Shown: positions 6,626 through 48,554 of the stretch, in pieces
How positions within the stretch are numbered: position 1 is the stretch's first letter
Layout: the number at the start of each line of letters is the position of its first letter
Source: a virus
DNA length: 64,000 nucleotides
IMG/VR virus record: IMGVR_UViG_3300042509_002293
Coordinates: 32,080 to 96,079 of that record
Strand: one strand, 5' to 3'
Notes under the pieces: generated by a model
The model's input: the letters and a program-made list of their open reading frames with translations, nothing else
What the model was told of the DNA's origin: nothing
The model's database searches: none
Position numbers and translations under genes: made by a program

Positions 6626-6994
6626 ATGGCATACGGACCATCACCCAGCTATCGCGCAGACTCCGGCTCGGCGTCCAGGCCTGTTCAGTTCACGCTCCAG
6701 GATGCGGAGCGAATCGGAAGAGTGGTGTCCGCCTACGAGCGAAGTCGTCGGGGCAGGAATCCCAGCACGCTGCCGAGGGCGGCTGGCGGCGGCGCGGCAA
6801 TCCGGGAGGCGACGTTCGTGGGGTCGTGGGCGTTGGGGTCTCAGAAAGTCGTCGACCTAGCCGGCGGCGGGGGCACTGCGGTCGCGGTCAACAAGCTGTT
6901 CAACATCATCGGCGTTGGCTCCTTCGGCTGGAGGACCTGCTACATCTCTCGGTCCGGCGACGGGCCGTATGTTCTCGTCAACTCGGAGTGCTGA
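6626..6994 (+). CDS. Small tail-region protein
   Basis: 122 aa ORF tightly packed in the tail operon. Confidence 0.55.
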   Translation: MAYGPSPSYRADSGSASRPVQFTLQDAERIGRVVSAYERSRRGRNPSTLPRAAGGGAAIREATFVGSWALGSQKVVDLAGGGGTAVAVNKLFNIIGVGSFGWRTCYISRSGDGPYVLVNSEC

Positions 6995-6996
6995 CG

Positions 6997-9900
6997 GTGG
7001 GCTCCCCTGATCGAGGCTGTCACTCGCCGCGAGCCTACACCTGGGGGGAGGGGGCATCGGCGTCGTCCACCTACGGAAGGTACAGGGGCTCGTGGCCGTA
7101 CCGCCAGGGGTCATACTTGCCTGGATTCTTCGGGGACTTCCGAGACCCGCCGATTGCGGGCGATTGCCAGATCCCTCCGTCCATGCAGGGAGACTGGATT
7201 GATTTCTCGTCAACGGGCTGGACGTCGTATGCCATCGACTCTTCTGGCCAGTTGTGGGCGTGGGGAGACGGTCCGCTCGGGGACGGAACGCTCTACGGCT
7301 CCATGCACCCAATCAGGATCCCCGGGGGTCCCTGGAAAAGTGTGTCGACGTGCGGGCCCCACACCGTGGCCGTCACCACAGACGGCGACGTCTATACATG
7401 GGGCGGAAACTCTTACGGTGAGCTTGGCAACGGGACGGCGAGGGCACCTGAATCGTGGTCGCCTCGGCTGATGCTTAACTCGTCGATCGAGTACGTCAGG
7501 ACAGGTCCCGGGACCGAATTCAACCCTTCATTTAATCTGAATTCCCCGCAGATTGTGAAGGCTAATCAAGACGACCCCGGCGGCGGTGCCATCCTCCGGG
7601 TCAACCGCGAATTTTTCATAGAGCGGTTTACCAACATATCGGCCTCCGGAATCTCTTTTGGGGAATTATTTAGCCTGCCCGTCCTGAGCGTTGAAGGCTC
7701 CCCTGTTATTGAGCCCGCCGAGCTTGCGCCCAACGTCTCCCTGAGGGTGCTGCGGGTGGAGGTCGTGTCTGGCGGACAAGGCTACGAAAACGGCGCGGCC
7801 GTGGTTTTCTCTCCGAACGCCGCCGGCATTGCCGCAACCGGCCGAGTCGTTGTCTATGGGGGGGCCGTGCTTTATGTCCTGGTCGACTACAGGGAAGAGC
7901 CGGTCCTCTACGACAAGATGCCGACGGCGACGATCGTGGGGTCAGGAGGCGGCGCCGTTGTGCAGGTGGTGGCAACCGGAAGAATGACCGGGATCGATCT
8001 TCGATCGAAAGGCCGATATCAGGCATCAGGCCTGTCTGTCGCCTGGAAGCTCCTCGGCCGCGACCACTCCACCGTGGTGTCGCAGGGCGACACGTCTGGG
8101 GCTTTCCTTCCGTTCGTCGTCGCTCGCATCACCGGCATCGACGTCATCGACGGCGGCAGCGGGTACACATGCCCATCAGGCCTTCCGCTGAAGGTGCATT
8201 GCAGCGGCGTCGAGGTTGGCGAGTGCGTTCTCTCGCCGTCGGGCGTGGCGTCGGTGACTCCGTCGACGGTCCAGGCGGCCGACCGGTCGCTCGGCGAGTT
8301 GTCGCCGTTCTCGGTAGGAATCTATCAGTCGGGTGCTTCATTGACTTACAAGTACCCGCCCAAAGGCGCCGAGCTTCGCTTCACCGGCAGCGGGCTGGCG
8401 GTGCCGCTTGAAATCTCCTTGTCGTCAGCGCCTTTTGCCACGTCGCTCGACGCGGAAGCCGTTAATTATCCTGACGAGAAGTCGAAGGCCAGCGTGAACA
8501 AAGTTTTCGTTGTCCACAGCAAGGGAAGTTTTTCTATTGACGTCGCTGGGCGGAACGTCCGTGAAGAAAGCAAGGTTGAAATCTGGGTTCCCTACGAGGG
8601 AGAGCCGAATCCAGAAGTCCCGAAGGCCTACCTCACGTTCCAGGATGGATACCCAGAAATCGAACTGGTCGTCTGGTTTGACTATCCGCAGTGGTCGGCT
8701 CGCTTGACGGAGTCGATCTACGGAGTGACGAGCAGGCCTTACGTTGTGGTGAGACAATCCGAGGAGCAGTACGGCCCCGGGACGAGGCCATCCACAGTCC
8801 TGCCGCTGCCGGTGGCTGCGGTTGATCCTACGGGATTCCCCTCTGCGATACCTCACGCCCCCTACAACCGACCCTTGAATCCATCCCGGGGCGGGCTCCT
8901 GCTGTGGGGCCAGAGGGCTTACGACCAGCGACCTCTCACTGGGGGGCAGTGTTTCTGGCTGGGTCCTGGCATTACGGTGAGCGACTACGCTACGTCCGAA
9001 GGGGACCGGTGTTACGAGGTCGTCGACAACGTGTACGGCGGAGACGTCCTCGGGCTCGTGAGGGGCGTGCCGGCGACACTCACCGGCGCTGAAGCTCGAA
9101 CCCACCACCAGACGAGCAGGTTACTGACTGGCTACGGCGTCACTGTCTACACATATCTTGGCGGGCAACGCTACTCATGGCCAGACTTCCAGACTCAGAG
9201 CGTTTATCCGGAGAGGCGGTCCGTAATAAGCAACTTAGGTGAGTCCTGGGAGGGACCGCCGACGCTGCCCCCGCAGGTCACCGCCGTATACGACGATGCC
9301 GGAACATACGGCGATCGGGTCTCAATCGCCTGCTCGGTCGGCACTCAAGGAAGGTCCGTAGGCCTATCCTTCTCGATATCCGACCCCGGCTCAGGATACA
9401 GGGAGGAGCCGAGCGTTGTGTTCACGACCCTGGCCCTGTCGCCCACCAGGATTTCCTCGATCTCCGGCGTCGACAAGGCCGTGGCCGTTTACGGTCGGAC
9501 AACTCTCCTCAAGGACGGCGTCCTGTACTGGTGCGGCGCCGAGCACATCGGCTACAGCAATGGCACAGTCGCGTCGCTCATCTCGACGACCCCCACACGC
9601 CAGGGGTACTCGCTGCGGGTCTATTCCAATGGCTTGCTCGGAGGCATGCCCTGGAACCTGATCGATTACTGGGCTCCCAACCCCCCGGACGAAACGTACA
9701 TCCTGAACATGCTGACGCAGGCGTTCCTGCCCCAGGCCAGGACGTCGGGGTGTGACGCCACTCCCCGGCAGGGGGACGGCCACAGCGATTCGTATGTCTC
9801 TCCGGGGCCCGTCGACGTCGGGCCGCCGTCGCCGCTGACTGGGGTTCCGATCTTTTGGCCGCCTGAGGGGTATGTGCCTCCTCCGCCGCCGACGGGGTGG

Positions 9901-14349: not shown

Positions 14350-15255
14350 CTACCCCGAGTGGTCGCCCCCGGCTGGCCTGTTGTCGCGGTGAAGCGACGG
14401 CAGGACGTGGCAGGGCGGAGTTCCCAGGTCTGCATAGCGAGGATCTAGGTATGCCCTCGTGACGCGTGGGCTACTGTGATCAAGCAGGAGGGTGGCATTG
14501 CCTCCCCGGGCAGCGAAGTGTGACGCCGCGCAGCGTCTCAGTTGATGAAATTTCGCTCGCCGACCTCCGGGAAGTCCGGCCGCCTGGACGATATCGCCGA
14601 ACCGCTTCCAGATGTGCGCGTAGCAGCGGTCCCACTTGAAGATCAGGTCCGTCGGTGACTTCCCTCGGCACATCGCGTCGACGAGTTCGCACGTCTCGTC
14701 GGTGAGCGTGTAGAGCCGGTCCCGTTTCCCGCCCTTGCGGTGCTCGGCCTTCACGAGGAGCCTCGGGCTGCTCCAGTCCTCGACGCGAGCGGCGAAGATC
14801 GCGCCGCACCGTTCTGCGGTCTCGTAGAGCACACAGATCAGGGTCCGCCAAAAGAGCCCCGCCGGAATGCCGCTGATCCTCCCCGGCGTCGCCCCGGCGA
14901 CCAGGGCGAGATGCTGGAGTTCTGCGACGGACCAGCATGACGGAACCCGTTCGGGGAGACGGGCGGAGGGGGGCACGCACGGCGCGGTGGGGACGATGCC
15001 GCGATCACGAGCGAACCGCCAGAGCGAACACAACTGATTGCGTTCTTTCTCGCTCGTGTAGGGGCTCCTCTCCCTCGATCGCTTGTCGAGGAACCTCGAC
15101 AGCACGAGGTCGTCAAAGTCAGCCGTCGTCGCCGGCCTGCCGAGGAATTTGTCGAAAGTCCTCAGTGTGCAGTGGTAGAGCCGGGTGGTGTTCTCAGATC
15201 GGCCCCGCAGACGAAGCGGGCGGAAGTGTTCCTCGAATAACTCGTTGAGTTTCAT
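14350..15255 (-). CDS. int: Tyrosine recombinase / integrase
   Basis: LYETAER (R), HQLRR (HxxR), LLDH, TRAYL (Y) catalytic set plus N-terminal core-binding region; ATG 15255 has GGAGG upstream. Confidence 0.88.
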   Translation of the reverse strand: MKLNELFEEHFRPLRLRGRSENTTRLYHCTLRTFDKFLGRPATTADFDDLVLSRFLDKRSRERSPYTSEKERNQLCSLWRFARDRGIVPTAPCVPPSARLPERVPSCWSVAELQHLALVAGATPGRISGIPAGLFWRTLICVLYETAERCGAIFAARVEDWSSPRLLVKAEHRKGGKRDRLYTLTDETCELVDAMCRGKSPTDLIFKWDRCYAHIWKRFGDIVQAAGLPGGRRAKFHQLRRCAASHFAARGGNATLLLDHSSPRVTRAYLDPRYADLGTPPCHVLPSLHRDNRPAGGDHSG

Positions 15256-23191: not shown

Positions 23192-23484
23192 AACGCCGCC
23201 TCTCTGTCCAGAAATCCATGAACGCCACCGGCGGCATCGTCGACGGCTGCCCGCCGTGTCGGCGGTGTGGCGGGCAGCTACGGTGTGACCGGAGGGCGGA
23301 CTTCGATCCTCTGAAGCCTGAGTTCAGAGACTGGCACGAGTCCTGGGAGTGCTACGAGTTCGACCACGACGGAAAAACCTTCGAGGCCTTTTTCGTTCGG
23401 TGCGACTCGTGCTCCCGGACGAGCAACTACTGGCAGGAAAAACCGTTGACCAATACACCGATCCAGGAGACAATAGAGACATGA
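23188..23484 (+). CDS. Zn-ribbon-like protein
   Basis: CRRCGG...CDSC; ATGA coupling. Confidence 0.6.
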   Translation: MKRRLSVQKSMNATGGIVDGCPPCRRCGGQLRCDRRADFDPLKPEFRDWHESWECYEFDHDGKTFEAFFVRCDSCSRTSNYWQEKPLTNTPIQETIET

Positions 23485-23753
23485 TTAAGAAACCCAAGTA
23501 CGTCCTCGAACCGTCCACCGAGCGTCGCATCGCGGCCCGGGAGGCGGCCCGGATCCTCGACCTCTCGATGGGGCACCTGCGAAGCTTGGCTCGCAAGGAG
23601 ATTCTCCGATCGTGGAAGATCGGCCCCAGCACCGTGCTGTACAGCCTCGACGAGATCGTGGCCTACGGCAAGGAGAAGGCCGAAGGCCGCCGGAAGGGGA
23701 AGGTCCGAGGCGCCCGCCCGCAGGGGTTCTCCCCGGACGCATCCGGCGAATAG
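23481..23753 (+). CDS. Excisionase-like HTH protein
   Basis: IAAREAARILDLSMGHLRSLARKEIL; AGGAG SD. Confidence 0.75.
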   Translation: MIKKPKYVLEPSTERRIAAREAARILDLSMGHLRSLARKEILRSWKIGPSTVLYSLDEIVAYGKEKAEGRRKGKVRGARPQGFSPDASGE

Positions 23754-23878
23754 GCCTGTTTTTGCGGGCTTTTTGTGACCAGTGTCATAGAGACTTGCCC
23801 CACACTTGCAATGCACCGAGGCCGGTGCTATACTCTTGGGGTCGGACGAAACCACCCGCCAACGAAGGACTGAAACCC

Positions 23879-24985
23879 ATGAACAACGTCGCCGCCGCCC
23901 CCGCCTGGAAGAGCTACTACGTCGGAGCCACCGTCGCCACCCCTGACGGCATCGAGTGGAAGATCATCGAGTGCCAGAAGCGGCCCACGGCCAAGGGCTA
24001 CCAGAGCCGCGTGTTCACGCTGCTCGGTCCTGACGGACGCAAGGTCCGGAAGACCGCCCGTGGCATCACCCTGTTCTCAGCGGGGGTCGAGGTCAGCGAG
24101 GCGAAGCCCCAGGTCGTCGAGTTCGCCCCGGCGGAGCCTGTCGCTCCGGCCCCCGTGGTGGAGCCCGTCCCGGGTCAGGTCCGGCATGCCAACTACGGGG
24201 CCCTCCTACGGGCGGTCGCCGCGAAGTGCAACGTCTGGCTCGTCGGCCCGGCCGGCTCCGGCAAGACCTCGGCCGCCGAGAACGTGGCCAAGGACCTCGG
24301 CCTGCCCTTCTACTCGAAGAGCGTCGGCCCGCAGACCAGCGAGTCGAGCCTCCTGGGCTACCAGGACGCCAACGGACGCACGGTCCGGACGCTCCTCCGC
24401 GAGGCGTTTGAGCACGGCGGCGTGTTTCTCCTGGACGAGGTCGACGCGGCCAACCCGGCCGTCCTCGTCGTGATCAACGCCCTGCTCGCGAACGGCCACT
24501 GCGCGTTCCCGGACGGGGTCGTCGAGAAGCATCCGGACTTCACGCTGATCGCCGGCGCCAACACGATCGGCCAGGGTGCGGACCGCCAGTACGTCGGCCG
24601 GCAGCAGATCGACGCCGCGACGCTCGACCGGTTCGTGAATCTCGTGTGGGACTACGATCCGGCGATCGAGGCCGCCGCCGCCGGCGTCCCGCTCGCCGCC
24701 GTGGCCGACGCCCCCAGGCCTGCGGCCATCGCGTTCGAGGTCGGCGTCACGCCCGCCGAGACCGAGCGGCGGGCCGCCGAGTACGTCCGGTACGTCGTGG
24801 CGGTCCGCAACGCCGTGGCGTCGTTCGGCAAGTCTGTCCGGTTCATCGTCAGCCCTCGGGCCAGCAAGCATGGGGCCGCCCTGGTCCGGGCCGGGTTCTC
24901 GATCGCGGACGCCTGCGAACTGGCGATCTGGAAGGGGCTCGACTCCGACACCCGGGCCAAGCTGGAGGCGGCCGCCGCACGCTAG
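23879..24985 (+). CDS. AAA+ ATPase (MoxR/CobS/CbbQ-like)
   Basis: Walker A GPAGSGKT, Walker B LLDEVD, IAGANT, DAATLDRF, SPRAS. Confidence 0.88.
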   Translation: MNNVAAAPAWKSYYVGATVATPDGIEWKIIECQKRPTAKGYQSRVFTLLGPDGRKVRKTARGITLFSAGVEVSEAKPQVVEFAPAEPVAPAPVVEPVPGQVRHANYGALLRAVAAKCNVWLVGPAGSGKTSAAENVAKDLGLPFYSKSVGPQTSESSLLGYQDANGRTVRTLLREAFEHGGVFLLDEVDAANPAVLVVINALLANGHCAFPDGVVEKHPDFTLIAGANTIGQGADRQYVGRQQIDAATLDRFVNLVWDYDPAIEAAAAGVPLAAVADAPRPAAIAFEVGVTPAETERRAAEYVRYVVAVRNAVASFGKSVRFIVSPRASKHGAALVRAGFSIADACELAIWKGLDSDTRAKLEAAAAR

Positions 24986-25039
24986 TTGCAATGCACCGAG
25001 GCCGGTGGTATACTCACACGACCCCCAGGAGGAATGCCC

Positions 25040-25867
25040 GTGATCCACAAGTTTGAGTCGTTCGAGAAGTTCATCGAGCAGGCCCTGGTCGTCCCGTCCA
25101 GGCAGGACAGTTCGAGCAGCCGGCAGACGCGAGAAGGCAAGGACCCGTGGCACGGGACGAACACCTTCGAGCAGGCTGTCGAGATCGCCCGGAAGGGGTG
25201 GCCGGAAGGGGCCGCCAAGGCCCTGGAGCTACGGGCCGAGGTCGAGTCGGCGGTCCGGGACCTGATCAACGCCCGGTCGAGTTCGTACACGTTCGACCTT
25301 GTCGGCGAGTACGTCGACATCGGCCGGCACCTGTCCGGCGAGCCGGAATGCTTCGGCACCGAGGTGACCGACGGCAGCAGCGTGTCGCGGCCGGTGGTCA
25401 AGATCGTGGCGAACCTCGCCGCCAGCGGCTCGATCAGCCCGAGGAGCCTGTTCGTCCGGGGGGCCGCGATCGTGGCCGCCATCGACATCCTGGAGGCCCT
25501 CGGCCGCCGTGTCGAGGTGTGGGTCGCCCACGGGTCCGCGACGCGTCGGGGCGGCGGCGCCACCCACGAGTCTCACGTCCTGGTCAAGAGTGCCGACCAG
25601 CCCCTCGACGTTGACAGGCTCAGCTTCGCCGTGGCCCACCCGGCCTGCCTGCGGCGGCTGTGTTTCTCTGTGATGGAGCAGCGTGGGCACCTGCCCAACT
25701 CGACCTACCCCCACAGCGTCACGGTCGAGGGCGACGCCATCGTCACCAAGCACTCACTCCGGGGGTCCGACTTCTCGAAGCGGGAACTCCTGGAACTCGT
25801 GGCCGAGCTTTGCGGGCAGGCGGGGGTCGAGATTGACGAGGAAGAGGTGGATGCGGCCTGCCACTAG
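25040..25867 (+). CDS. Putative partner of the AAA ATPase (vWA/CobT-like)
   Basis: DIGRHLSGEPEC, RGAAIVAAIDILEALGRRVEV, HPACLRR; adjacent to the ATPase. Confidence 0.6.
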   Translation: MIHKFESFEKFIEQALVVPSRQDSSSSRQTREGKDPWHGTNTFEQAVEIARKGWPEGAAKALELRAEVESAVRDLINARSSSYTFDLVGEYVDIGRHLSGEPECFGTEVTDGSSVSRPVVKIVANLAASGSISPRSLFVRGAAIVAAIDILEALGRRVEVWVAHGSATRRGGGATHESHVLVKSADQPLDVDRLSFAVAHPACLRRLCFSVMEQRGHLPNSTYPHSVTVEGDAIVTKHSLRGSDFSKRELLELVAELCGQAGVEIDEEEVDAACH

Positions 25868-25918
25868 ACAATGCACCGAGCCCGGCGTATACTTGGGAAG
25901 TCACGAGGAGACATCGAC

Positions 25919-26134
25919 ATGAAAACGGTTCGCCCAATCTCGTTCTTCCCGCCGTCGTCCGGCAAGGGCAAGTGGCATGCAGCCGCAGCGTGCAGCACCC
26001 TGTCGGCGTGCGGCTCGGGGGCGACGGTCAACTCGCTCGGGTTTCAGCGGATTCAGGTCGAGGGTGGAGTCGAGGCGAAGTGGGTTCATCCGATTTGTTG
26101 CCGTCGGTGTCTGAAGCAAGCCTGTGGGGAGTAA
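25919..26134 (+). CDS. Small Zn-binding protein
   Basis: KWH...SACG...CCRRC; own promoter copy and SD. Confidence 0.6.
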   Translation: MKTVRPISFFPPSSGKGKWHAAAACSTLSACGSGATVNSLGFQRIQVEGGVEAKWVHPICCRRCLKQACGE

Positions 26135-26138
26135 CGCG

Positions 26139-26654
26139 ATGCACTACAAATTCCTGCGAGTCACGAGCAACGAGGGCCGCTGCGAGAAGTGCGGCACCGT
26201 CTGCCCGAAGCGGCGTGTCGAGGTCCTGCCGGTCGACGCCGATGGCAATGCCTGCGGTGAAGTGCAACTCTGGGGCGTCAACTGCGCGGCCCAGGCCCGC
26301 TACGGCTCGAAGGCCCGCAAGTACCAGGAGCGGGTCGTGGTCGAGGCCGACACGGCCGAGCGGGAGCGGGCCTACCAGGAGCGGCAGAAGCTGGCTCGGG
26401 TCGCGGTCGTCGGCCAGAGCTACGACTTCGGCGGGCCGGCCACGGTCGTCTTCTGCCGTGACGGGCTCGACAGCGAGGGCCTCGCCAACCGGCTCTACCG
26501 CCGGACCGGCCGCAGCCTCGTCGGCAGCTACTTCGCCCGTGGCCCCCGGGGAGAGGTCGTGCGGGTCGACGGCAGCGATGCCGCCGACGTGGCGTTCTTC
26601 GCGGAGCGGGGGTACGTTCAGGTCTCGAACCCGGTCGAGGAGGTGCTCCACTGA
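26139..26654 (+). CDS. Zn-finger protein
   Basis: CEKCG...WGVNCA. Confidence 0.7.
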   Translation: MHYKFLRVTSNEGRCEKCGTVCPKRRVEVLPVDADGNACGEVQLWGVNCAAQARYGSKARKYQERVVVEADTAERERAYQERQKLARVAVVGQSYDFGGPATVVFCRDGLDSEGLANRLYRRTGRSLVGSYFARGPRGEVVRVDGSDAADVAFFAERGYVQVSNPVEEVLH

Positions 26655-26845
26655 GCGACCTGCGCCACGGCGACAAAGTGAAGGTCCTGGTCGACGGCCA
26701 GTGGGTCGAGGCGACGCTCACCCACCCGTCCCTACAGCTTCCCAGGGGCATGGGGGAGGCGTGGCACTTCACGCTCGATCCCGAGTGTCCGGCCGAGCCC
26801 GGCCGAGACTGGGCCCCGGCAAAAGACATCAAAAAGGCCGACTAA
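26651..26845 (+). CDS. Small protein with a possible CTG start (not in ORF track)
   Basis: CTGA overlap with upstream stop, GGAGG 7 nt before; LSDLRHGDKVKVLVDGQWVEATL...KKAD*. Confidence 0.5.
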   Translation: MSDLRHGDKVKVLVDGQWVEATLTHPSLQLPRGMGEAWHFTLDPECPAEPGRDWAPAKDIKKAD

Positions 26846-26906
26846 AGCCCGGGGTTGCAATGCACCGATAACGGTGGTATACTTGGGCCACCCCAGGAGA
26901 AAAGCC

Positions 26907-27866
26907 ATGACCGACCTCACCAAGCTTTCGCCGTCCGAAGTCGACACGATCTACCTGGAGCGGCTTGCGGCCCTCCAGCGGGCATGGAGGGAGGTCGAGT
27001 ACGCCTCCCTCGCCGTCCTGCGTGAGTCTGGCCGAGGCATCACCGTCGAGGTCGCGAACCGCAAGGGCTACCCGGTCCACGAGACCGTCTACGTCCACCC
27101 GTCGTTCGGGCAGACGCTCCAGGCGTGGTATCGGACCTACAAACTCGACGACGTCCGCGTCCACGTCCTGACCGTCGAGCGGTGCCTCGCCGAGGGGCTC
27201 GCCCCCGCCGCCGCCGCAAAGCTGGCCCAGGCCGAGGCCGCCTGCCGCGACGCCCAGGCGGCCTGCCACGAGGTCGAGACGGAGTACGATCGCCGCCCCT
27301 GGAGCCGCTACTGGCTCGTCACGTCAAGCGACGGGCACATCCACCGGTCGACGTGCTGCTCGACCTGCAACAAGGGCCTCAACCGCACCGGGTTCGCCCT
27401 GACGCCGTTTCTGAGCGGCAAGGCCGACTCCGATGCCGTGGCGGACCTGGGCCCGGCCCTGTGCTCGGTCTGCTTCCCTGAGGCCCCTGTCGAGTCGAAG
27501 GAGCAGGCCCGCATCCCGGCCCGGCTCGCCCTGGCCCTCGCCGAGGAGGGCGTCGAGGCCTTCCAGAAGGCCCGCCAGGAGGCCGCCGCCAAGCAGGCCG
27601 CCCGGTGCCCCGGCTCGGGTCAGCAGGGCCTCCCAGGCAGCCACAGGGCCTTCCACAAGTGCCCGGTCTGTGGCGAGTCTCAGCGGGCCACCCCGGGCGG
27701 CAAGTTCCGGCCCCACAAGCCGGCCCGGTTCAACGTCGAGAACGCCGACTACAAGGCCTGGAACGGCTCGGCCTGGGGCCCGAAGACGAAGGCCGCGATC
27801 TACGGGTCGCTCGAAGAGGCCGAGGCGGTGGCGGCCCAGGTCGGCGGCACGGCGAGGAGGAAGTGA
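26907..27866 (+). CDS. Hypothetical Cys/His-rich protein
   Basis: WSRYWLVTSSDGHIHRSTCCSTC, LCSVCFP, CPGSG, CPVCG; own promoter. Confidence 0.75.
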   Translation: MTDLTKLSPSEVDTIYLERLAALQRAWREVEYASLAVLRESGRGITVEVANRKGYPVHETVYVHPSFGQTLQAWYRTYKLDDVRVHVLTVERCLAEGLAPAAAAKLAQAEAACRDAQAACHEVETEYDRRPWSRYWLVTSSDGHIHRSTCCSTCNKGLNRTGFALTPFLSGKADSDAVADLGPALCSVCFPEAPVESKEQARIPARLALALAEEGVEAFQKARQEAAAKQAARCPGSGQQGLPGSHRAFHKCPVCGESQRATPGGKFRPHKPARFNVENADYKAWNGSAWGPKTKAAIYGSLEEAEAVAAQVGGTARRK

Positions 27867-27868
27867 GG

Positions 27869-28066
27869 ATGAACAAAATCACCTGGGATGACTGCCGCAA
27901 GGGCGACGAACTATCGGCCAGCCTGGACGGACGATTCACGATCCGCTTCCGCCTAGCTGCCGATGGCAAGCCTGTCCGGCTGAGGATGAATGGCGAGTAC
28001 ATGGGGTCGTTCAGCACGATCGCGGCGGCCAAGAGACACGCCTCAAGACTGGCGAAGGTGAAGTGA
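27869..28066 (+). CDS. Hypothetical protein
   Basis: 65 aa, FSTIAAAKRHA. Confidence 0.55.
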   Translation: MNKITWDDCRKGDELSASLDGRFTIRFRLAADGKPVRLRMNGEYMGSFSTIAAAKRHASRLAKVK

Positions 28067-28311
28067 TGGAACTCGAAGAACCTCTCGATCCGAAGGAAGC
28101 CGCCGCCGCCATCCGAGGCATCGTGACGAACTGGCGGACCTGCACCCAGGCCGCCGGGCTCGCCAGGAAGGCCGGGAGGGGCCAGGACGCCGTCGAGCCC
28201 CTGGCGACCGCCGTGGCCGCGATCATCGAGGCGGCGGCGTGGCTGTCCCAGGGCGACGGCGAGGACCGGCTCACCCTGGCCCGAGCCGTGGCGGAGAGCC
28301 TTGTGTCATAG
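28066..28311 (+). CDS. Hypothetical protein ending LVS* at a cassette junction
   Basis: Stop lies in GTGTCATAG. Confidence 0.6.
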   Translation: MELEEPLDPKEAAAAIRGIVTNWRTCTQAAGLARKAGRGQDAVEPLATAVAAIIEAAAWLSQGDGEDRLTLARAVAESLVS

Positions 28312-28398
28312 GCCGAAAACGGCCCCCTTGCAATGCACCGACATCGGTGCTATACTTGGGGCAGACGGGACGAGACACCACTAACCAGGAGACGACCA

Positions 28399-29133
28399 GT
28401 GAACACCGCCACCAGCTACACCGCCGCCCAGGGGTTCGCCGCTCTCGCCGCCATCAAGTCGGCCAAGGCCAAGTACGACGCCATCGCTTCGCGAGACGCG
28501 GTCGGCGGGTTCCGCCACTGCCCCGACGCGAAGGTCGCTGCCGAGTACCACTCGGCTGGCCAGAAGCTGTTCGAGGTCGCCGACTACTTCTTCGCGACAC
28601 TCACCGGCTTCAAGACGCTGAACGAGTGCCTCGACGCCCAGGGGCACGGCTACCGCCCGACGTTTCGCGAGGAAGGCGGCAAGGACGCCGAGGTCGTGTT
28701 TCTCGCCGAGGTCTACGACTACCTCGCCGAGACTCGCGGATTGCCGCTTCGGGCCTACCGGCCCGAGCAGGCTGTCCCGGCCAAGCTGACCCTCGCCTCG
28801 ATCAAGGCGAAGCTTCGAGACCTTCGCGAGGAAGCGCACCGCGAGACTCGGTCGATCGACGCTAAGTATTTTCGATCGAGCGGCCACGAGGTTCGCCTCG
28901 GCGGCGGCCCGGACGGCTATTACGAGTACGGCGGCGCCTGGGACGGGACGCTCAAGGACCTGAAGGACCACGCCGAGCGGTGCCGCAGCAAGGGAGGGGA
29001 CACCGTCGACATCGGGGGGCAATGGCTCTGCGGAAACGACCTCAACGACACGTTCGACCCCACCGACTGCGAGTGGTTCGTCAGCCTGACCGTCGACGAG
29101 ATCCTGGGGATCGGCAGGAAGGCCGTGTCATAG
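28399..29133 (+). CDS. Hypothetical cassette protein ending AVS*
   Basis: GTG start within the repeat, AGGAG SD. Confidence 0.75.
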   Translation: MNTATSYTAAQGFAALAAIKSAKAKYDAIASRDAVGGFRHCPDAKVAAEYHSAGQKLFEVADYFFATLTGFKTLNECLDAQGHGYRPTFREEGGKDAEVVFLAEVYDYLAETRGLPLRAYRPEQAVPAKLTLASIKAKLRDLREEAHRETRSIDAKYFRSSGHEVRLGGGPDGYYEYGGAWDGTLKDLKDHAERCRSKGGDTVDIGGQWLCGNDLNDTFDPTDCEWFVSLTVDEILGIGRKAVS

Positions 29134-29208
29134 CCCCTTGCAATGCACCGAGACCGGTGCTATACTTGGGGCAGACGGGACGAGACACCACTAACCAGGA
29201 GACGACCA

Positions 29209-29478
29209 GTGAACGCCACAAACGCCTTCCGCGACCAAGTCAATCAGCGAATCACGCTCGTCGTCCGCATTGCCAAAGACGAAAGCGGCCGCCCGAGGGC
29301 GCACACGTTCAACGAAGCCCGATATGCGATTCTTGAAGGCCAGGACAGAGTCAAGTTTAGCGCTCGCATCCCGATGTTCGGGCTGTCTGAATTCCGGGAG
29401 GTTTCCGCTCGCGTCCACCACGTCGGATTCGACGGCACTGTCTACCTCAAGAATGTTCGCCTGCGAAAGTCCCGCTGA
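29209..29478 (+). CDS. Hypothetical cassette protein
   Basis: GTG start within the repeat. Confidence 0.65.
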   Translation: MNATNAFRDQVNQRITLVVRIAKDESGRPRAHTFNEARYAILEGQDRVKFSARIPMFGLSEFREVSARVHHVGFDGTVYLKNVRLRKSR

Positions 29479-29509
29479 TTGTCCGGACACGCCAACCAGG
29501 AGCCCGCTC

Positions 29510-29812
29510 GTGACCACCTTCAAAACCACCATCCGCTGCGGAGACACGCTCCACGTCCTCGTGGCGGGCACGGCCCAGGAACTGGCCTCCCTGGCTTCCA
29601 GGACGGCCTCGAAGCTCCTGAGGGCCAACGGCGACGCCGTCCAGGCCCAGGACGGCTCGTCGACCTGGATCGTCGACGAGGAGGTCCACCCGGCGGTCTG
29701 GCACCAGGACGGCAACCGGGTCCGGGCGGTCCGGGTCCAGTACCACCGGGACACGGCCGGGAAGGTCTCGAAACAGGCCCTCCGGAACGTGTGGATTTCG
29801 GCCGTGTCATAG
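29510..29812 (+). CDS. Hypothetical cassette protein ending AVS*
   Basis: AGGAG SD, GTG. Confidence 0.65.
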   Translation: MTTFKTTIRCGDTLHVLVAGTAQELASLASRTASKLLRANGDAVQAQDGSSTWIVDEEVHPAVWHQDGNRVRAVRVQYHRDTAGKVSKQALRNVWISAVS

Positions 29813-29888
29813 CCCCCTTGCAATGCACCGAGGTCGGTGCTATACTTGGGGCAGACGGGACGAGAAACCACCAACCGGGAGACGGCCA

Positions 29889-30581
29889 GTGAATATCCAC
29901 TTCGACATCAACGCGACCAGCCAGACCGAGTGGTACGACATCCGGTGCGACAAACTGCCCGGCCAGGAACTTGGCTACATCTACCTCTGCCCCGGCTACG
30001 GCGGCAGCTACTGCTACACCATCAAGACGCAGTCGGCATACAAGCGGCATCGCGGCGCCCTCCGCAGCCGCCTGTTCAAGACCCTCGACGAGGCAAAGCA
30101 GGCCGCGAAAGCCACCGTCGCCCGTCGGCTGAAGCAGGAGCGGGACGCGGAGCCCGTCAAGCACGGCTGCGGCCACTACTACAAGGGCGGCCCGAGGTGG
30201 TACTACGTCTACGTCGGGAGCAAGGGAGAGGCCCTCTGCTACCCGCAGCCGGCGGCCTCGAAGAAGGACGCCCTGGCGAAGCTCCAGACCCTGCCGCTCT
30301 GGGTCAAGCACCCGGTGGACGTCGTCGAAGGCGTAGTCCGCTGGAAGTCGAACGGCAGCGTGCCGCCGGCTGACTGCCGGGAGAAGCTCCGGGCCGAGGG
30401 GGTCCGATTCGACGAGGCCAAGTCTGCGGCCGCCGACAAGGCCGACTTGGAGGCTCTGCTCGCCGAGTGCCGCAGCCGCCCCCGGGACGACAGCCCCGAG
30501 GCCCAGTTCGAGCGACGGGCCGCGTTCGGGCCTGGGCAGACGATCGTCGACGTCCTCGGCGGTCATCGGTACGAGACCTGA
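29889..30581 (+). CDS. Hypothetical cassette protein
   Basis: GTG in the repeat; C-terminal FERRAAFGPGQTIVDVLGG. Confidence 0.7.
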   Translation: MNIHFDINATSQTEWYDIRCDKLPGQELGYIYLCPGYGGSYCYTIKTQSAYKRHRGALRSRLFKTLDEAKQAAKATVARRLKQERDAEPVKHGCGHYYKGGPRWYYVYVGSKGEALCYPQPAASKKDALAKLQTLPLWVKHPVDVVEGVVRWKSNGSVPPADCREKLRAEGVRFDEAKSAAADKADLEALLAECRSRPRDDSPEAQFERRAAFGPGQTIVDVLGGHRYET

Positions 30582-30657
30582 GGAGCCCCCTTGCAATGCA
30601 CCGGCCTCGGTGATATACTGCCCCCAGTCGCCCACCACTCACGAAAGGACCTGACCC

Positions 30658-31521
30658 ATGAGCAACGCCCGCACCGACGTCCATGCCCCGGCCGCCGCTG
30701 GCTTCGACCCCGAGGCTTACGCCTGCTACGGCTGCTTCGACAACGGCGAGCCGTTCTCGGCCCGCGAGCGGCATGAGGCCGTGAAGTCCCTCCGGGATCG
30801 CGGATTCAAGTGCGGCCACGGCTCCAGCGGTCAGTGCGGCCACTGCGGTGCCCATATCCGCTACACCGCCCTGCTCGCCCGCGAGGACGTGAAGGAGTTC
30901 ATCTTCGTCGGCGAGGACTGCCTGGGGAACCGGTTCTCCGGCATCACCGCCGGGCAGTTCCAGGAGCTTCGCCGGCGGGCCGCGCTCAATCGGGAGCGGG
31001 CCGGCAAGGAAGAGCGGATCGAGCGGCTCCAGGCCGAGCACGCCTGCCTCAAGCGGCTCGTCGAGGACGGCAGCCACGGCAGCGAGTTCCTGTCCGACGT
31101 CCGATCCAAGTTCCTCGCGAACGGTCGCCTGAGCGACGCCCAGGTCGCCGCCGTTGGCCGGGCGTTCGAGGGCATCGACCGTCGCGCCAAGTGGGACGCC
31201 GAGCGTCGCGAGCGGGCCGCCGCCCTGGTGGCCGCCGGGGTCCGGGCCCCGCAGGGGCGGGTCGAGGTGGTCGGCCAGATCGTCTCGGCCAAGTCTCAGC
31301 TTAACGCCGTCGGCGAGCCCTGCGTGAAGATCGTGATCCGCACCGACGCCGGCTGGTCGGCCTGGGTCACGCTCCCGTCGGCCCTCGACGACGGCAGCGA
31401 CGTGAAGGGGCGACGGATCAAGCTGTCCGCGACCCTGACGCCGTCGGACAAGGACGCCACGTTCGCGTTCGGGAAGAGGCCGACGAAGGCGGCTTTTCTC
31501 GACGCGGCGGCCACTGCCTGA
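30658..31521 (+). CDS. Zn-finger plus OB-like hypothetical protein
   Basis: CGHCGAHIRY..VGEDC, FLSD..LSDAQVAA, GRVEVVGQIVS..FGKRPTKA. Confidence 0.75.
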   Translation: MSNARTDVHAPAAAGFDPEAYACYGCFDNGEPFSARERHEAVKSLRDRGFKCGHGSSGQCGHCGAHIRYTALLAREDVKEFIFVGEDCLGNRFSGITAGQFQELRRRAALNRERAGKEERIERLQAEHACLKRLVEDGSHGSEFLSDVRSKFLANGRLSDAQVAAVGRAFEGIDRRAKWDAERRERAAALVAAGVRAPQGRVEVVGQIVSAKSQLNAVGEPCVKIVIRTDAGWSAWVTLPSALDDGSDVKGRRIKLSATLTPSDKDATFAFGKRPTKAAFLDAAATA

Positions 31522-31563
31522 TTGTCTGGATACGTCACCCATCAAGAACAGGAGACACGACTC

Positions 31564-31977
31564 ATGCTGATTCGCAATGACCAGGACAAGGCCCAGGCCA
31601 AGCTGCTCGACGCCATCAACTGGAAGGTGGTCGAGGCCCATCGGGCCGAGATCGCAGCCAAGGACAAACTCGCCGAGAAGGTCGCCCTGTGTGCCGCCAG
31701 CGGCGTCCAGGCGGCCGGCGAGGCGGTGAGACTCGCCCGCGTCGCGAAGAACTGGCAGTGGGTCCTCAAGTGTGCGGGCAAGGCCTGTGCGGACGGCAGC
31801 AACGACGTGTCCGGCGCCGTGGCCCAGTGCGTCGCCAGCATCCGCCGGTCGATCGAGTTGGCCGCCGAGACCGGGCCCTCGACGTGCCCGTTCCACAACG
31901 CCGTCGACTTTGCGGAGGCCCGGGGCGACGTCGAGACGCTCCGCCAGATCGAGGCCCTGCCCGGGGCCGTGTCATAG
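31564..31977 (+). CDS. Hypothetical cassette protein ending AVS*
   Basis: AGGAG SD. Confidence 0.65.
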   Translation: MLIRNDQDKAQAKLLDAINWKVVEAHRAEIAAKDKLAEKVALCAASGVQAAGEAVRLARVAKNWQWVLKCAGKACADGSNDVSGAVAQCVASIRRSIELAAETGPSTCPFHNAVDFAEARGDVETLRQIEALPGAVS

Positions 31978-32051
31978 GGACTTGCAAACCACCGGTATCG
32001 GTGGTATAATTGGGCCAGTTCGAGAGACATCACACACGAAAGGGAACGCCA

Positions 32052-32477
32052 GTGTACAACTACCTGAAGCTCCGAAGCTGCTCGAATCTCGCCTGCGAGA
32101 CCTTCCAACTCGTCGAGCCCGCCAGCGAGACCCCGGCGGCGAGACTGTCGCGGGTGCAGTCCATTGCTCGGCAGTGGGGCCTGGGCAATGGCAGCGACGC
32201 CGTCGAGGTCTCCGTCGAGTCCTTCAACGGCGACTGCGTCGTGTCCAGGCACGCCGTGGCGATCGACCGCCCCGAGCCGGCGGCCGTCGAGGTCGACGAA
32301 GACGAGCAGCCCGTCACGATCACCATCACGAAGGCCCAGGCCCGGGTCGTCCTGGCAGGCCTCTCCAGGCGGTACATCGAGCTTGAGGCTCTCGGAGGCT
32401 GGGAGGCCGAGGCCCTCGGCAAGGAGGCCAAGGCCACCTACCAGTCGATCGACAAGCAGGTCTACGGCGACGCCTGA
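32052..32477 (+). CDS. Hypothetical cassette protein
   Basis: GTG after a promoter copy. Confidence 0.65.
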   Translation: MYNYLKLRSCSNLACETFQLVEPASETPAARLSRVQSIARQWGLGNGSDAVEVSVESFNGDCVVSRHAVAIDRPEPAAVEVDEDEQPVTITITKAQARVVLAGLSRRYIELEALGGWEAEALGKEAKATYQSIDKQVYGDA

Positions 32478-32525
32478 GTTTCCGGATGCGATTGCCCCTC
32501 ACCCCCCAATCAGGAGACGACGACG

Positions 32526-33065
32526 ATGCGACACAAGAAGACACGCAGGCCGAGCCAGGCGCAGTTGGCCGTGATCGGCAAGATCAACGCGGAGTGCGAG
32601 CGGCTCGGAGCCAAGGGCTGCGAGCGGCCGGACGGGATCGCGGACGCGACGTGGTGGAAGTGCTACGAACTGGGCTACATCGAGACCGTCGACCGGGACG
32701 GCAACACGCCGCTCGTGGGCGTCGGCTCGCACGGCCGTGGTTGGGTGCCGCAGTGCCCGAAGCCGGTGGCGGCCGTAATCAAGCTGCCGCCCAAGTTCTA
32801 CCAGGACCACTCGGAGCGAGACTTGCCGACACCGGAGGACGTCGGCAATGCCAAGAGTTACGTCCTGGTCCGGGCCGACGACCCCGCCCTGCCTGAGCTT
32901 CTCAACGACGCCGAGTTCTACGCCGATCCCTGGGGGCCCGACGCCGAGTGGCTCGGCGGGCTCAAGGCCTCAGCCAGGGCGACGATCCGGGCCATCCGGG
33001 ACGTCACCGGCTGGGACGACGCAAGTGATACGGTCAAGCGGCTGCGGAAGCCGCAAAAGGCCTGA
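32526..33065 (+). CDS. Hypothetical protein
   Basis: AGGAG SD, 179 aa. Confidence 0.7.
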   Translation: MRHKKTRRPSQAQLAVIGKINAECERLGAKGCERPDGIADATWWKCYELGYIETVDRDGNTPLVGVGSHGRGWVPQCPKPVAAVIKLPPKFYQDHSERDLPTPEDVGNAKSYVLVRADDPALPELLNDAEFYADPWGPDAEWLGGLKASARATIRAIRDVTGWDDASDTVKRLRKPQKA

Positions 33066-33144
33066 TTTCAGACCCCTTGCAAACCACCGGCCTCGGTGCT
33101 ATACTTGGGGGCAGTTCGAGAGACACCAGCAAAGGAGACGACCC

Positions 33145-33762
33145 GTGAGCAACACCAACTACATCCCGACGCCCAAGTCCGTCGAGCTTCACCTCGGCAG
33201 CAACCCCGAGTTCACCAGGAAGTACGGCGCCAAGGTCAAGGCCGCCGGCGGCCGGTACACCGAGTGCCGTGGCCACAGCAACACCCGCTTCGTCGACCTG
33301 CCCTGGACCGACGAGAGCCGCGATCTCGCCAACAAGCTCATCGCGGAATTCGGCCGGCTGAACAACCGGACGGTCGTCGTCCTGCGGCCAGACCGCACCT
33401 TTCGCGGCAAGCACGTCCACGCCCCGGTGGTCGTCCACTACGTCAGCCAGACCGACGCCAACCCGTGCGGCATCGTGCAGGAGAAATACGAGGCAGCGTT
33501 CCTCAAGGCCTTCCCCGAGGCCGCGTTCCCGGAGCCTGAGGTCGTGAAGCCCCCGAAGCCGCTCGCGGCCGACCTGCATCTGAACAGCCCCGCCCAGTTC
33601 TGGGCGGTCCTGGATGCCCTCCAGCAGTACATCGACAACGCCAACGACGCCGAGCACCTGATCGACGACGCCCAGATCGACGAGTTCAAGGCCAAGCTGC
33701 GGGCTGCCGAGCAGTTCCGCGACCAACTCGACGCCGTCCTGGCGTCGCTGGCCGAGGCCTGA
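33145..33762 (+). CDS. Hypothetical cassette protein
   Basis: AAGGAG SD, GTG. Confidence 0.7.
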   Translation: MSNTNYIPTPKSVELHLGSNPEFTRKYGAKVKAAGGRYTECRGHSNTRFVDLPWTDESRDLANKLIAEFGRLNNRTVVVLRPDRTFRGKHVHAPVVVHYVSQTDANPCGIVQEKYEAAFLKAFPEAAFPEPEVVKPPKPLAADLHLNSPAQFWAVLDALQQYIDNANDAEHLIDDAQIDEFKAKLRAAEQFRDQLDAVLASLAEA

Positions 33763-33895
33763 TATTGTCCGGACACGCCAACCCGAGGAAGACACCCTTC
33801 AACCTGACCCCCACAGCCCGCGACATCCTGAAGTACGCCCAAGCAGCCACCCACGTCCAGCGACAGTCGAAACTCGAAGTGAAGGAGACGGCCAA

Positions 33896-34231
33896 GTGAA
33901 CAACCCCGACGAAGTCCGCGACTGGGCATCCATCATGTTTGACCGCATCGACGGCGGCAGCAGCGTGGCCCCGTACCTAGCGGACGTAGCAATCGAATCG
34001 TCGCCGCCGGCCTGGGGGAACGCCGCCGCCTGGGAGGCGCACCTCGCCCGCAGAGACTTGTGGCTCCTGGCTCACGCCAAGTGGAGAGTCGACGAGGAGG
34101 ACGTCGCCGTCGAAGTCTCGCTCCACGGACGCGGCGTCCGCGTCCGTGACTCAAGCGGTGGCCTGGACGTGCTTTGCTTCGATTTCCGTGAGTTCGATCG
34201 AGCCCTCAACGAATTTCTCAGCGGGGAATAG
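33896..34231 (+). CDS. Hypothetical protein
   Basis: AAGGAG SD, GTG. Confidence 0.6.
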   Translation: MNNPDEVRDWASIMFDRIDGGSSVAPYLADVAIESSPPAWGNAAAWEAHLARRDLWLLAHAKWRVDEEDVAVEVSLHGRGVRVRDSSGGLDVLCFDFREFDRALNEFLSGE

Positions 34232-34236
34232 CGACA

Positions 34237-34497
34237 GTGACCACCTACACAACAACACCCGCGAGGTTCTCGCGGGCCGACCAGATCACGCCGGGCAACA
34301 TCGTCCGCCTGGGCGGGGAACTGTGCAAAGTCATCACGCCGAGAATCCTTGAGTGCTGCCGAACCGGTCGATGGTTCGTCGACGCCCAGGCGTTTCGGGG
34401 CGGCCAGGACGCCGAGCCCGTCATGGTCGAGTACGTCGGACCGCAGTGGGACCCGGCGGTTCGAGACTTGGTCGAGTCCTACAGGAGGGGCGAATGA
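34237..34497 (+). CDS. Hypothetical protein
   Basis: 86 aa packed ORF. Confidence 0.6.
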   Translation: MTTYTTTPARFSRADQITPGNIVRLGGELCKVITPRILECCRTGRWFVDAQAFRGGQDAEPVMVEYVGPQWDPAVRDLVESYRRGE

Positions 34498-34622
34498 GCA
34501 CCCAGAAAATCATCCACGCCCTGATCCTGGTCAGGCTTGGGCAGGAGCTAGGGACGGACACCCCCCTGGCCCGAGCCGTGGCCCGGCTCATCGAGGAGGC
34601 CCTAAAACTTGCCGTGTCATAG
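34494..34622 (+). CDS. 42-aa peptide ending AVS*
   Basis: AGGAGG SD, ATGA coupling; possibly truncated by the junction. Confidence 0.5.
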   Translation: MSTQKIIHALILVRLGQELGTDTPLARAVARLIEEALKLAVS

Positions 34623-34697
34623 CCCCCTTGCAAAGCACCGGCCTCGGTGTATAATGGGGCAGTGGAGCAACGAACCACAAACCCGGAGACGAAACCC

Positions 34698-35814: not shown

Positions 35815-35868
35815 CGTGCAAGTTCGATTCGTTTGGCTGGACACACTAACCTCGAAAGGGAATGACCC

Positions 35869-47708: not shown

Positions 47709-48554
47709 ATGCCGTGGATCGTCTACGAGACGGTTAACAAGCTGAACGGCAAGAAGTACGTCGGCGTCCACAAGCAGGATGGCGATGAGTTTGATGGGTA
47801 TCTCGGGTCTGGAAAGCGCCTCATGCGCTCAATCAAAAAGCACGGCGTTGACGCATTCGAGAGGTCGACCTTGTTCTCCTTCGACGACGAAGATGCCGCC
47901 TACGACAAAGAGGCCGAGATCGTTACCGAAGAATGGTGCAGCCGGCCGGACACATACAACATCAAGGTCGGTGGATTCGGAGGTTTCCCGAACGCCGACC
48001 CGGAGTTCAGGGCGAAGGCCTCGGAGAGGTCGCGTGCGATGCACGCCGACCCGGAGTTCAGGGCTAAGAACTCGGAGAGGGCGCGTGCGATGAACGCCGA
48101 CCCGGAGTTCAGGGCGAAACACTCGGCGCGAATGCGGGCGATGAACGCCGACCCGGAGTTCAGGGCTAAGAACTCGGAGAGGGCGCGTGCGATGAACGCC
48201 GACCCGGAGTTTAAGGCGAGGAGCTCAGAGAGAGCGTCGAAGCGGATGCGTTCGATGCAAGCTGACCCGGAGTTCAGGGCTAAGAACTCGGAGAGGGCGC
48301 GTGCGATGAACGCCGACCCGGAGTTCAGGGCGAAACACTCGGCGCGAATGCGTGCGATGAACGCCGACCCGGAGTTCAGGGCGAAACACTCAGAGAGAGC
48401 CCGGGCGATGAACGCCGACCCGGAATTCAAGGCGAGGCAATTGGCTGGAGTTCGGGCATATCAACAATATCGCCGTCGCGAAAAAGCGAACTCGCTCCTT
48501 TGCATCCTCGACGCCCAGGCCACGGAAGGCCAGCCATGTCAGTCAAATCCCTAG
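47709..48554 (+). CDS. GIY-YIG (Seg-like) endonuclease with tandem repeats
   Basis: IVYETVNKLNGKKYVG, YLGSG, YNIKVGG; nine ADPEF repeats. Confidence 0.85.
   Translation: MPWIVYETVNKLNGKKYVGVHKQDGDEFDGYLGSGKRLMRSIKKHGVDAFERSTLFSFDDEDAAYDKEAEIVTEEWCSRPDTYNIKVGGFGGFPNADPEFRAKASERSRAMHADPEFRAKNSERARAMNADPEFRAKHSARMRAMNADPEFRAKNSERARAMNADPEFKARSSERASKRMRSMQADPEFRAKNSERARAMNADPEFRAKHSARMRAMNADPEFRAKHSERARAMNADPEFKARQLAGVRAYQQYRRREKANSLLCILDAQATEGQPCQSNP
47991..48437 (+). repeat. Tandem ~51-nt coding repeat, nine copies
   Basis: AACGCCGACCCGGAGTTCAGGGC...GCGATG; unit (N/H/Q)ADPEFRAKxSxRxRAM. Confidence 0.9.

Follow-up and report, generated by a model that had tools for sequence, protein, structure and literature searches.

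Several open reading frames (ORFs) in a 64,000-nucleotide (nt) stretch of phage DNA, positions 32,080 to 96,079 of IMG/VR record IMGVR_UViG_3300042509_002293 (the whole stretch is here called the window), end in a common Val-Ser tail, which is encoded by a 9-mer, GTGTCATAG, that recurs just upstream of a repeated promoter. We conclude that GTGTCATAG is probably a cis-acting element of an early-promoter cassette, most likely a protein-binding one, and that the tails are its by-product. An earlier reading of the same DNA, the original prediction, had taken GTGTCATAG to be a fixed crossover or insertion site; that interpretation was partly supported, in that the donation of the tail by a DNA repeat was borne out and recombination at the motif was not.

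The window holds six copies of GTGTCATAG, all on the plus strand (starts at 23782, 28303, 29125, 29804, 31969, and 34614), against 0.10 expected from shuffled sequences. None of 100 shuffles reached six, and the whole 96,079-bp virus record has no copies besides these. Four of the six belong to an exact 12-mer, GCCGTGTCATAG. The recurrence of the motif just before promoter copies was thereby confirmed, and so was the claim that five ORFs end at its TAG while the sixth copy is noncoding. The five ORFs, all on the plus strand, are those of 81 amino acids at 28066 to 28311 (tail ..ESLVS*, ended by the copy at 28303 to 28311), 244 amino acids at 28399 to 29133 (..RKAVS*, copy at 29125 to 29133), 100 amino acids at 29510 to 29812 (..ISAVS*, copy at 29804 to 29812), 137 amino acids at 31564 to 31977 (..PGAVS*, copy at 31969 to 31977), and 42 amino acids at 34494 to 34622 (..KLAVS*, copy at 34614 to 34622). 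They were judged to be real genes from a G+C content at third codon positions of 0.88 to 0.93 and from starts preceded by Shine-Dalgarno sequences. The 244-amino-acid protein has 37 database homologues with varied tails; the 81-amino-acid protein has no family, the 100-amino-acid one is an orphan, and searches of Pfam and PHROG gave no family for the remaining motif-ended ORFs. These ORFs had been called unrelated, which holds for most of them but not for the pair at 28066 to 28311 and 34494 to 34622, whose C termini are weakly similar and which share a 17-nt identical stretch.

The gap between the 9-mer and the -35 hexamer is 4 to 5 nt in four window copies (4 nt for the third and fifth, 5 nt for the fourth and sixth) and 15 to 16 nt in two. 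The second copy lies 16 nt away because a small hairpin, GCCGAAAACGGC (28312 to 28323), is inserted. The noncoding first copy (23782 to 23790) precedes the -35 of the array's first promoter by 15 nt; on its 5' side are the stop codon and terminator-like hairpin of a small helix-turn-helix gene (23481 to 23753), and on its 3' side is the next gene, whose true start is at 23879.

The promoters themselves form an array of 11 sigma70-like copies on the plus strand at 23806 to 34655, each built of TTGCAA, a palindrome-bearing spacer, TATACT or TATAAT, a leader, and a start codon. The -35 hexamers start at 23806, 24986, 25865, 26855, 28328, 29138, 29818, 30591, 31982, 33077, and 34628; the one at 25865 belongs to a degenerate promoter and reads TAGACA. 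The spacer is 16 to 17 nt long and contains the palindrome CACCG-N4-CGGTG in all copies, and downstream of the -10 a leader of 40 to 50 nt with GGAG precedes a GTG or ATG start. A consensus scan gave 13 promoter-like sites against 1.0 expected, with the 11 array copies within 11 kb. When the copies were aligned, GTGTCATAG was present at six of the 11 promoters and missing at the other five.

Neither the DNA of this region nor the 244-amino-acid protein had a match among GenBank phages. A scan of IMG/VR with the promoter-operator pattern yielded three contigs with arrays (G001/L157, G002/L158, and G003/L159), each with 7 to 12 promoter copies, and three matching metagenome fragments (L162 to L164) were found. 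A profile of the 244-amino-acid family led to two distant phages, L183 and L184, in which that protein is 62 to 65% identical; L182 has the same motif positions as L183. Scanning IMG/VR with the loose pattern GTGTCATAG-N3-17-TTGCAA returned single chance matches only, and a pattern permitting other -35 forms gave no additional arrays. The comparison sample comprises nine sources, namely four arrays (the window included), the two more distant relatives, and the three fragments. The phage has a G+C content of 64%, and its nearest protein matches are from Mycobacterium, Gordonia, and Tunturiibacter phages.

Across the nine sources, all 29 exact copies of GTGTCATAG are co-oriented with transcription and have a promoter next downstream. 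There are no copies in structural genes or in the promoter-less "type-2" linkers described below. The arrangement around the first window copy is likewise conserved in L158, L159, L162, and L164. L183 and L184 retain the 9-mer and the -35 and -10 boxes, yet their spacer palindromes differ, being of the GGCCTAGG type, the GCTGACGTCAGC type, or AGACTGA..TCAGTCT. Such differences would be expected if repressor specificity were particular to each lineage; the 9-mer stays the same despite them, and whatever reads it would therefore be more conserved than the reader of the spacer. Examples of promoters with divergent palindromes are at 6956 to 7000 in L183 and 10724 to 10770 in L184.

Measured from the last base of the motif to the first of the -10, the spacing falls into three classes and no others: 25 to 29 nt (18 copies), 37 to 39 nt (13 copies), and 58 to 60 nt (2 copies). 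The second and third classes exceed the first by about 11 and about 32 nt, respectively, and at least eight unrelated sequences make up the longer spacers. As a rough estimate, finding eight independent spacers within 0.2 turn of in-phase would have P < 0.001 under a uniform-phase null. Phased spacing to the -10 points to a DNA site that is linked to the promoter. The proposed center of the 9-mer is at about -44, with alternative positions one or three helical turns upstream of that, always on the same helical face. Class I/II CRP promoters and those of the MarA/SoxS/Rob type similarly have an oriented site near -44 with alternatives one or three turns upstream, but the 9-mer is neither a marbox nor a CRP site, the -35 is not weak here, and the binder is only predicted. 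An alternative-sigma -35 role for GTGTCATAG was considered and rejected, the sequence at the required -10 distance being unconserved between spacing classes.

The 9-mer is kept whether or not it is translated. The original prediction had proposed aligning homologues of the motif-ended ORFs, and in four orthologue comparisons the protein similarity broke off exactly where the 9-mer begins. The window ORF at 31564 to 31977 ends ..LPG|AVS* before a promoter, and its L158 orthologue, which is equally long, has the ending ..LPG|VDG* with a promoter-less linker after it. The L157 ORF at 7100 to 7813 ends ..KA|AVP*, where the DNA has GTGCCATAG and a promoter, versus ..KA|ATA* in L158. The L163 orthologue of the window ORF at 32526 to 33065 ends ..RKP|VS*, versus ..RKP|QKA* in the window, L157, and L158. 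The L157 ORF at 8802 to 9287 ends ..IL|CHRPKAAC*, versus ..IL|KWSSVQ* in L159. Since similarity halts exactly at the 9-mer, the tail is dictated by the DNA. The alignment of the 37 homologues of the 244-amino-acid protein agreed: after a conserved ..EILxIGKK they have nothing, S, G, RA, AVS, TVS, VS, SAS, or AS. The shared Val-Ser tail is thus imposed by a DNA element and not inherited as protein.

Reading frame and coding status vary as well. The ORFs at 8802 to 9287 in L157 and 9478 to 9963 in L158 read the 9-mer in a different frame, as Cys-His-Arg (..ILCHRPKAAC*), and terminate at the TGA of the -35 variant TGACAA. In this family (L157 8802 to 9287, L158 9478 to 9963, and L159 7855 to 8349), the tail CHRPKAAC is encoded by the 9-mer, a small hairpin, and the -35 box; by eye the proteins resemble GNAT-type acetyltransferases, to which they may be candidate relatives. 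About 14 copies of GTGTCATAG are intergenic, including those at 23782 in the window, 4054 in L158, and 3069 and 5992 in L159 and those of L162 and L164, as well as most of the copies that L183 and L184 have, several of which lie 3' of terminator-like hairpins with T-runs. Where the 9-mer is read in the Val-Ser frame its codons are uncommon ones. All copies have GTG-TCA-TAG, although TCA accounts for 5% of the serine codons of this genome and TAG for 22% of its stop codons, which points to constraint on the DNA itself.

The motif might alternatively act in RNA, with GUGUCAUAG serving processing, stability, or the context of termination where the message of the preceding gene ends, since in this lineage it is transcribed as the last codons of the upstream gene and its presence tracks the upstream gene family. 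We give this explanation a very slim chance. No Rfam family matched the motif and folding gave no consistent structure (z-scores of -1.7 to +1.0); the 9-mer never occurs at promoter-less junctions, and fixed phasing to the -10 is a property of DNA. In L183, L184, and at 23782 in the window, moreover, the motif lies 3' of terminator-like hairpins and would therefore often go untranscribed.

The 9-mer could also have no function and be a passenger from one duplicated ancestral cassette. Three cassettes of the window are 90 to 96% identical over 84 nt, a likeness that shows recent common descent or gene conversion and that would suit a passenger. However, exact 9-mers are found in phages whose proteins are 60 to 65% identical and next to different spacers, while the flanking bases vary; rare codons are maintained; and only phased positions are occupied. 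A passenger origin thus seems scarcely probable to us.

On the favored explanation, a regulatory DNA element, the tails would arise from compaction. With genes so tightly packed, an ORF would reach the edge of the cassette or enter it and terminate at whichever stop first comes in frame, the TAG of the motif. If the 9-mer is missing or lies in another frame, the stop would come instead from the -35 variants TAGACA, TTGTAA, or TGACAA. Upstream stops do fall in the 9-mer, in -35 variants, or 0 to 15 nt ahead of the -35. The choice of -35 variant seems tied to the need for a stop, and promoter-embedded stops are therefore a general result of compaction.

Individual hexamers that hold the stop of the upstream ORF are TAGACA in the window (25862 to 25893), TTGTAA in L158 (5233 and 6085) and L159 (1182), and TGACAA in L157 (9285) and L158 (9961). 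A relic cassette was seen at 11538 to 11600 in L157. There a gene (..LLAS*) stops in the motif variant GCGTCATAG, and a leader-like sequence with GGAG and a start comes next, with the promoter core missing.

The repeat had been said to supply both the stop of the upstream gene and the start of the downstream one. The first half stands, but conservation of the start is loose, with N, K, or S as the second residue in 35 of 56 gene families. Many unrelated array genes begin with GTG-AAC(-GCC-ACC), that is, M-N-A-T (window 28399, 29209, and 29889; also in L157 to L159, L183, and L184). Starts of this type suggest a preference in translation initiation rather than a fixed junction.

The cassettes occupy the joints of a mosaic region. 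Gene families recur in different neighborhoods and orders between genomes, and of about 35 cassette pairs with one flank in common, about 5 have both. Among promoter junctions whose upstream family recurs in another genome, 82% have a different gene following it there. This mosaicism bears on the original prediction of a fixed crossover or insertion site, for which the phage tyrosine recombinase or a RecE-like system had been named as candidate catalysts; on such a model the integrase, perhaps with an Xis-like protein, would join gene cassettes at GTGTCATAG. The four orthologue pairs that lose protein homology exactly at the left edge of the 9-mer are in line with that proposal, as are the mosaic joints at cassettes, the tyrosine recombinase encoded in the genome together with an Xis/BldC-like gene beside the array, and a motif that is present in L163 and absent in the window at the same orthologous junction (family F8). 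However, breakpoints are not significantly enriched at the motif. Adjacency is broken at 79% of motif-bearing and 84% of motif-less promoter junctions (P = 0.74), and at 66 to 67% of tightly coupled or type-2 junctions (P = 0.12 versus the 82% of promoter junctions), counts that are not independent of one another.

The positions at which homology ends are also scattered over the cassette. One coincides with the left edge of the motif (window 31964), and others are just before the -35 (29815, 33075, 34621, and 26855), in the -10 or the leader (30619, 33110, and 34653), and at the Shine-Dalgarno sequence or start codon (28406 and 33156). Presence of the motif tracks the upstream gene family, consistently in seven of eight cases with F8 as the exception, while it is discordant with the downstream gene in five of nine. 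Because the motif follows the upstream family and usually stays with it as the downstream gene changes, most exchanges would lie to its right. The pattern fits homologous exchange among dispersed repeats better than a fixed site, and recombination would probably occur anywhere within the shared 30 to 100 bp, not by cleavage at one position.

Other properties of the 9-mer argue in the same direction. It is asymmetric, has unconserved flanks, and lacks the inverted-repeat core typical of tyrosine-recombinase sites; together with the variable ends of homology and the missing fold, this sets it apart from attC- and att-like sites. Recombination would need no phasing to a -10, yet the spacing is phased, and the intergenic copies in relatives and the family that reads another frame are not what a fixed gene junction would predict. 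The tyrosine integrase gene (about 14434 to 14847, minus strand) is about 9 kb from the array and has no copies of GTGTCATAG near it. An arm-type integrase site was likewise rejected, every copy of the motif being attached to a promoter. RecT was not found in the genome, and the proposed catalysis by the integrase or a RecE-like system was unsupported. We therefore regard a fixed site as very unlikely. Phased spacing without breakpoint enrichment instead matches what the original prediction had named as the outcome that would count against it, a transcription-factor-type site. Susskind and Botstein reportedly put forward in 1978 a linker or boundary-sequence model of modular phage evolution. 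The array resembles it in that short conserved intergenic sequences offer homology for module exchange, but the conserved sequences here are evidently regulatory, and their breakpoint enrichment over other junctions is not significant.

The main alternative to the favored factor is a stoperator-like insulator, in which a repressor monomer on the 9-mer blocks read-through and so silences the array in the lysogen or prevents promoter occlusion. In Cluster A mycobacteriophages such as L5 and TipsytheTRex, stoperators are short, asymmetric, co-oriented sites at gene ends (PMC9283540). The 9-mer resembles them: it is asymmetric, its 29 exact copies are all on the transcribed strand, and it lies in short intergenic spaces at gene ends. 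The phage is probably temperate, because an integrase is present, and most of the terminator hairpins of the L183/L184 type are missing in the window lineage, where another insulator would be useful. On the other hand, stoperators have the operator sequence and occur genome-wide and away from promoters, whereas the 9-mer differs from the palindrome that is the candidate operator of these promoters, is never found away from a promoter (in type-2 linkers or structural genes), and is phased with the -10, which a roadblock would not need. It is also kept across different spacer palindromes, whereas immunity specificities usually diverge. All in all, we consider a roadblock unlikely, though less so than the other alternatives.

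The explanation that we favor is that the predicted binder acts on the adjacent promoter from an asymmetric site always co-oriented with transcription. Given the phased spacing and a motif that persists alongside different palindromes, a factor that contacts RNA polymerase, as an activator or co-regulator, is favored over a roadblock. We infer both the binding of a protein to the 9-mer and the modulation of the promoter. Several points weigh against this explanation. Few independent events underlie the phasing statistic, and the comparison covers just four arrays, two more distant relatives, and three fragments. An activator is not obviously required by promoters whose -35 and -10 hexamers come close to consensus as they stand, and five of the 11 window promoters work without the motif. 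As the motif tracks the upstream and not the downstream gene, the gene that would be regulated is not consistently linked to it. Conservation of the TAG could come partly from its use as a stop codon.

A cassette of motif, promoter, leader, and Shine-Dalgarno sequence with start, heading small accessory genes, would behave much like the PeSL cassettes of T4-type phages. In two reports (Arbiol et al. 2010, PMC2839356; Comeau et al. 2014, PMC4122927), PeSL cassettes are described as beginning with the stop codon of the upstream gene and containing a sigma70 promoter, a stem-loop often between -35 and -10, and a Shine-Dalgarno sequence and start, and as heading ORFans and marking insertions and deletions between related phages. 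The array of this phage shares with them a strong sigma70-like promoter that is repeated many times across a variable region, each time in front of small genes. Its cassette likewise spans from the stop to the Shine-Dalgarno sequence and start, with an inverted repeat between -35 and -10, in our case recognized from sequence. Related phages again differ by insertions, deletions, and reorderings, as the broken adjacencies at promoter and other junctions indicate. The differences are in the type of phage, the upstream element, and the spacer. The phage is uncultured, G+C rich, integrase bearing, and not T4-like, and its relatives are metagenome contigs. In place of an AT-rich tract there is a discrete, exactly conserved, helically phased 9-mer upstream of the -35, and the spacer palindrome varies by lineage in an operator-like manner.

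One candidate for the binder is a conserved small protein encoded directly upstream of the array. The product of the small gene at 23481 to 23753 (plus strand, with the terminator-like hairpin 3' of it) has a weak match to HTH_17 and matches the PHROG annotated "excisionase and transcriptional regulator." A sequence search against the Protein Data Bank gave no match. The structural model (predicted local distance difference test score of 74) superposed best on Xis of mycobacteriophage Pukovnik, BldC, and RdfS, with template modeling scores of 0.73 to 0.77 on the target; the E-values of the fold search were weak, though local superposition on Xis and BldC was good. The helix-turn-helix residues are partly conserved between lineages. 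Either the 9-mer or the spacer palindrome might be bound by this candidate, which we take as a lead and not as evidence, and a host factor is equally possible as the reader of the 9-mer. A gap of 6 nt separates the end of a promoter-like site, TTGACC-17-GACAAT (window 23446 to 23483), from the ATG of the gene, and a message started there would be leaderless; L159 does not conserve this site.

The identical C termini of unrelated phage proteins would thus be the footprint of a regulatory DNA word read by packed genes, which calls for caution in annotation and in motif-based clustering of proteins. The phased 9-mer, the lineage-specific spacer palindrome, and the conserved leader together make a testable promoter architecture for uncultured high-G+C phages. 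Phage regulatory cassettes at the joints of mosaic accessory regions are few, and the array may add a non-T4, high-G+C example to them.

A second standard linker was seen between genes of the array. It lacks a promoter and consists of TGA-(0-2 nt)-TTGTCCGGAYAC, with GGAG and a GTG start 20 to 40 nt further on; in almost every copy the TGA stop abuts the near-palindrome. Copies are at 29476 to 29490, 31519 to 31533, and 33760 to 33776 in the window, with a weaker one at 35833 to 35844, and in the relatives at 8767, 9781, 13007, and 14969 (L157), 9443, 10284, 10736, and 12760 (L158), and 3809, 6553, and 7547 (L159). At two orthologous junctions this linker replaces the 9-mer-promoter cassette, and it has the half-word (G/T)TGTC in common with the 9-mer. 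The two standardized linkers, the 9-mer-promoter cassette and the promoter-less TGA-TTGTCCGGAYAC, which both include the stop of the preceding gene and are interchangeable at orthologous junctions, might serve to exchange single-gene cassettes, with the Xis/BldC-like protein or another factor binding the 9-mer and directing recombination. We give this idea little credence, but if true it would describe a promoter-linked cassette system in a temperate high-G+C phage, mechanistically between PeSLs and integrons.

Outside the array, the window has a tandem repeat at 47916 to 48488, with a period of 51 nt and at least seven copies of 65 to 91% identity, which is probably part of a repeat-containing structural gene.

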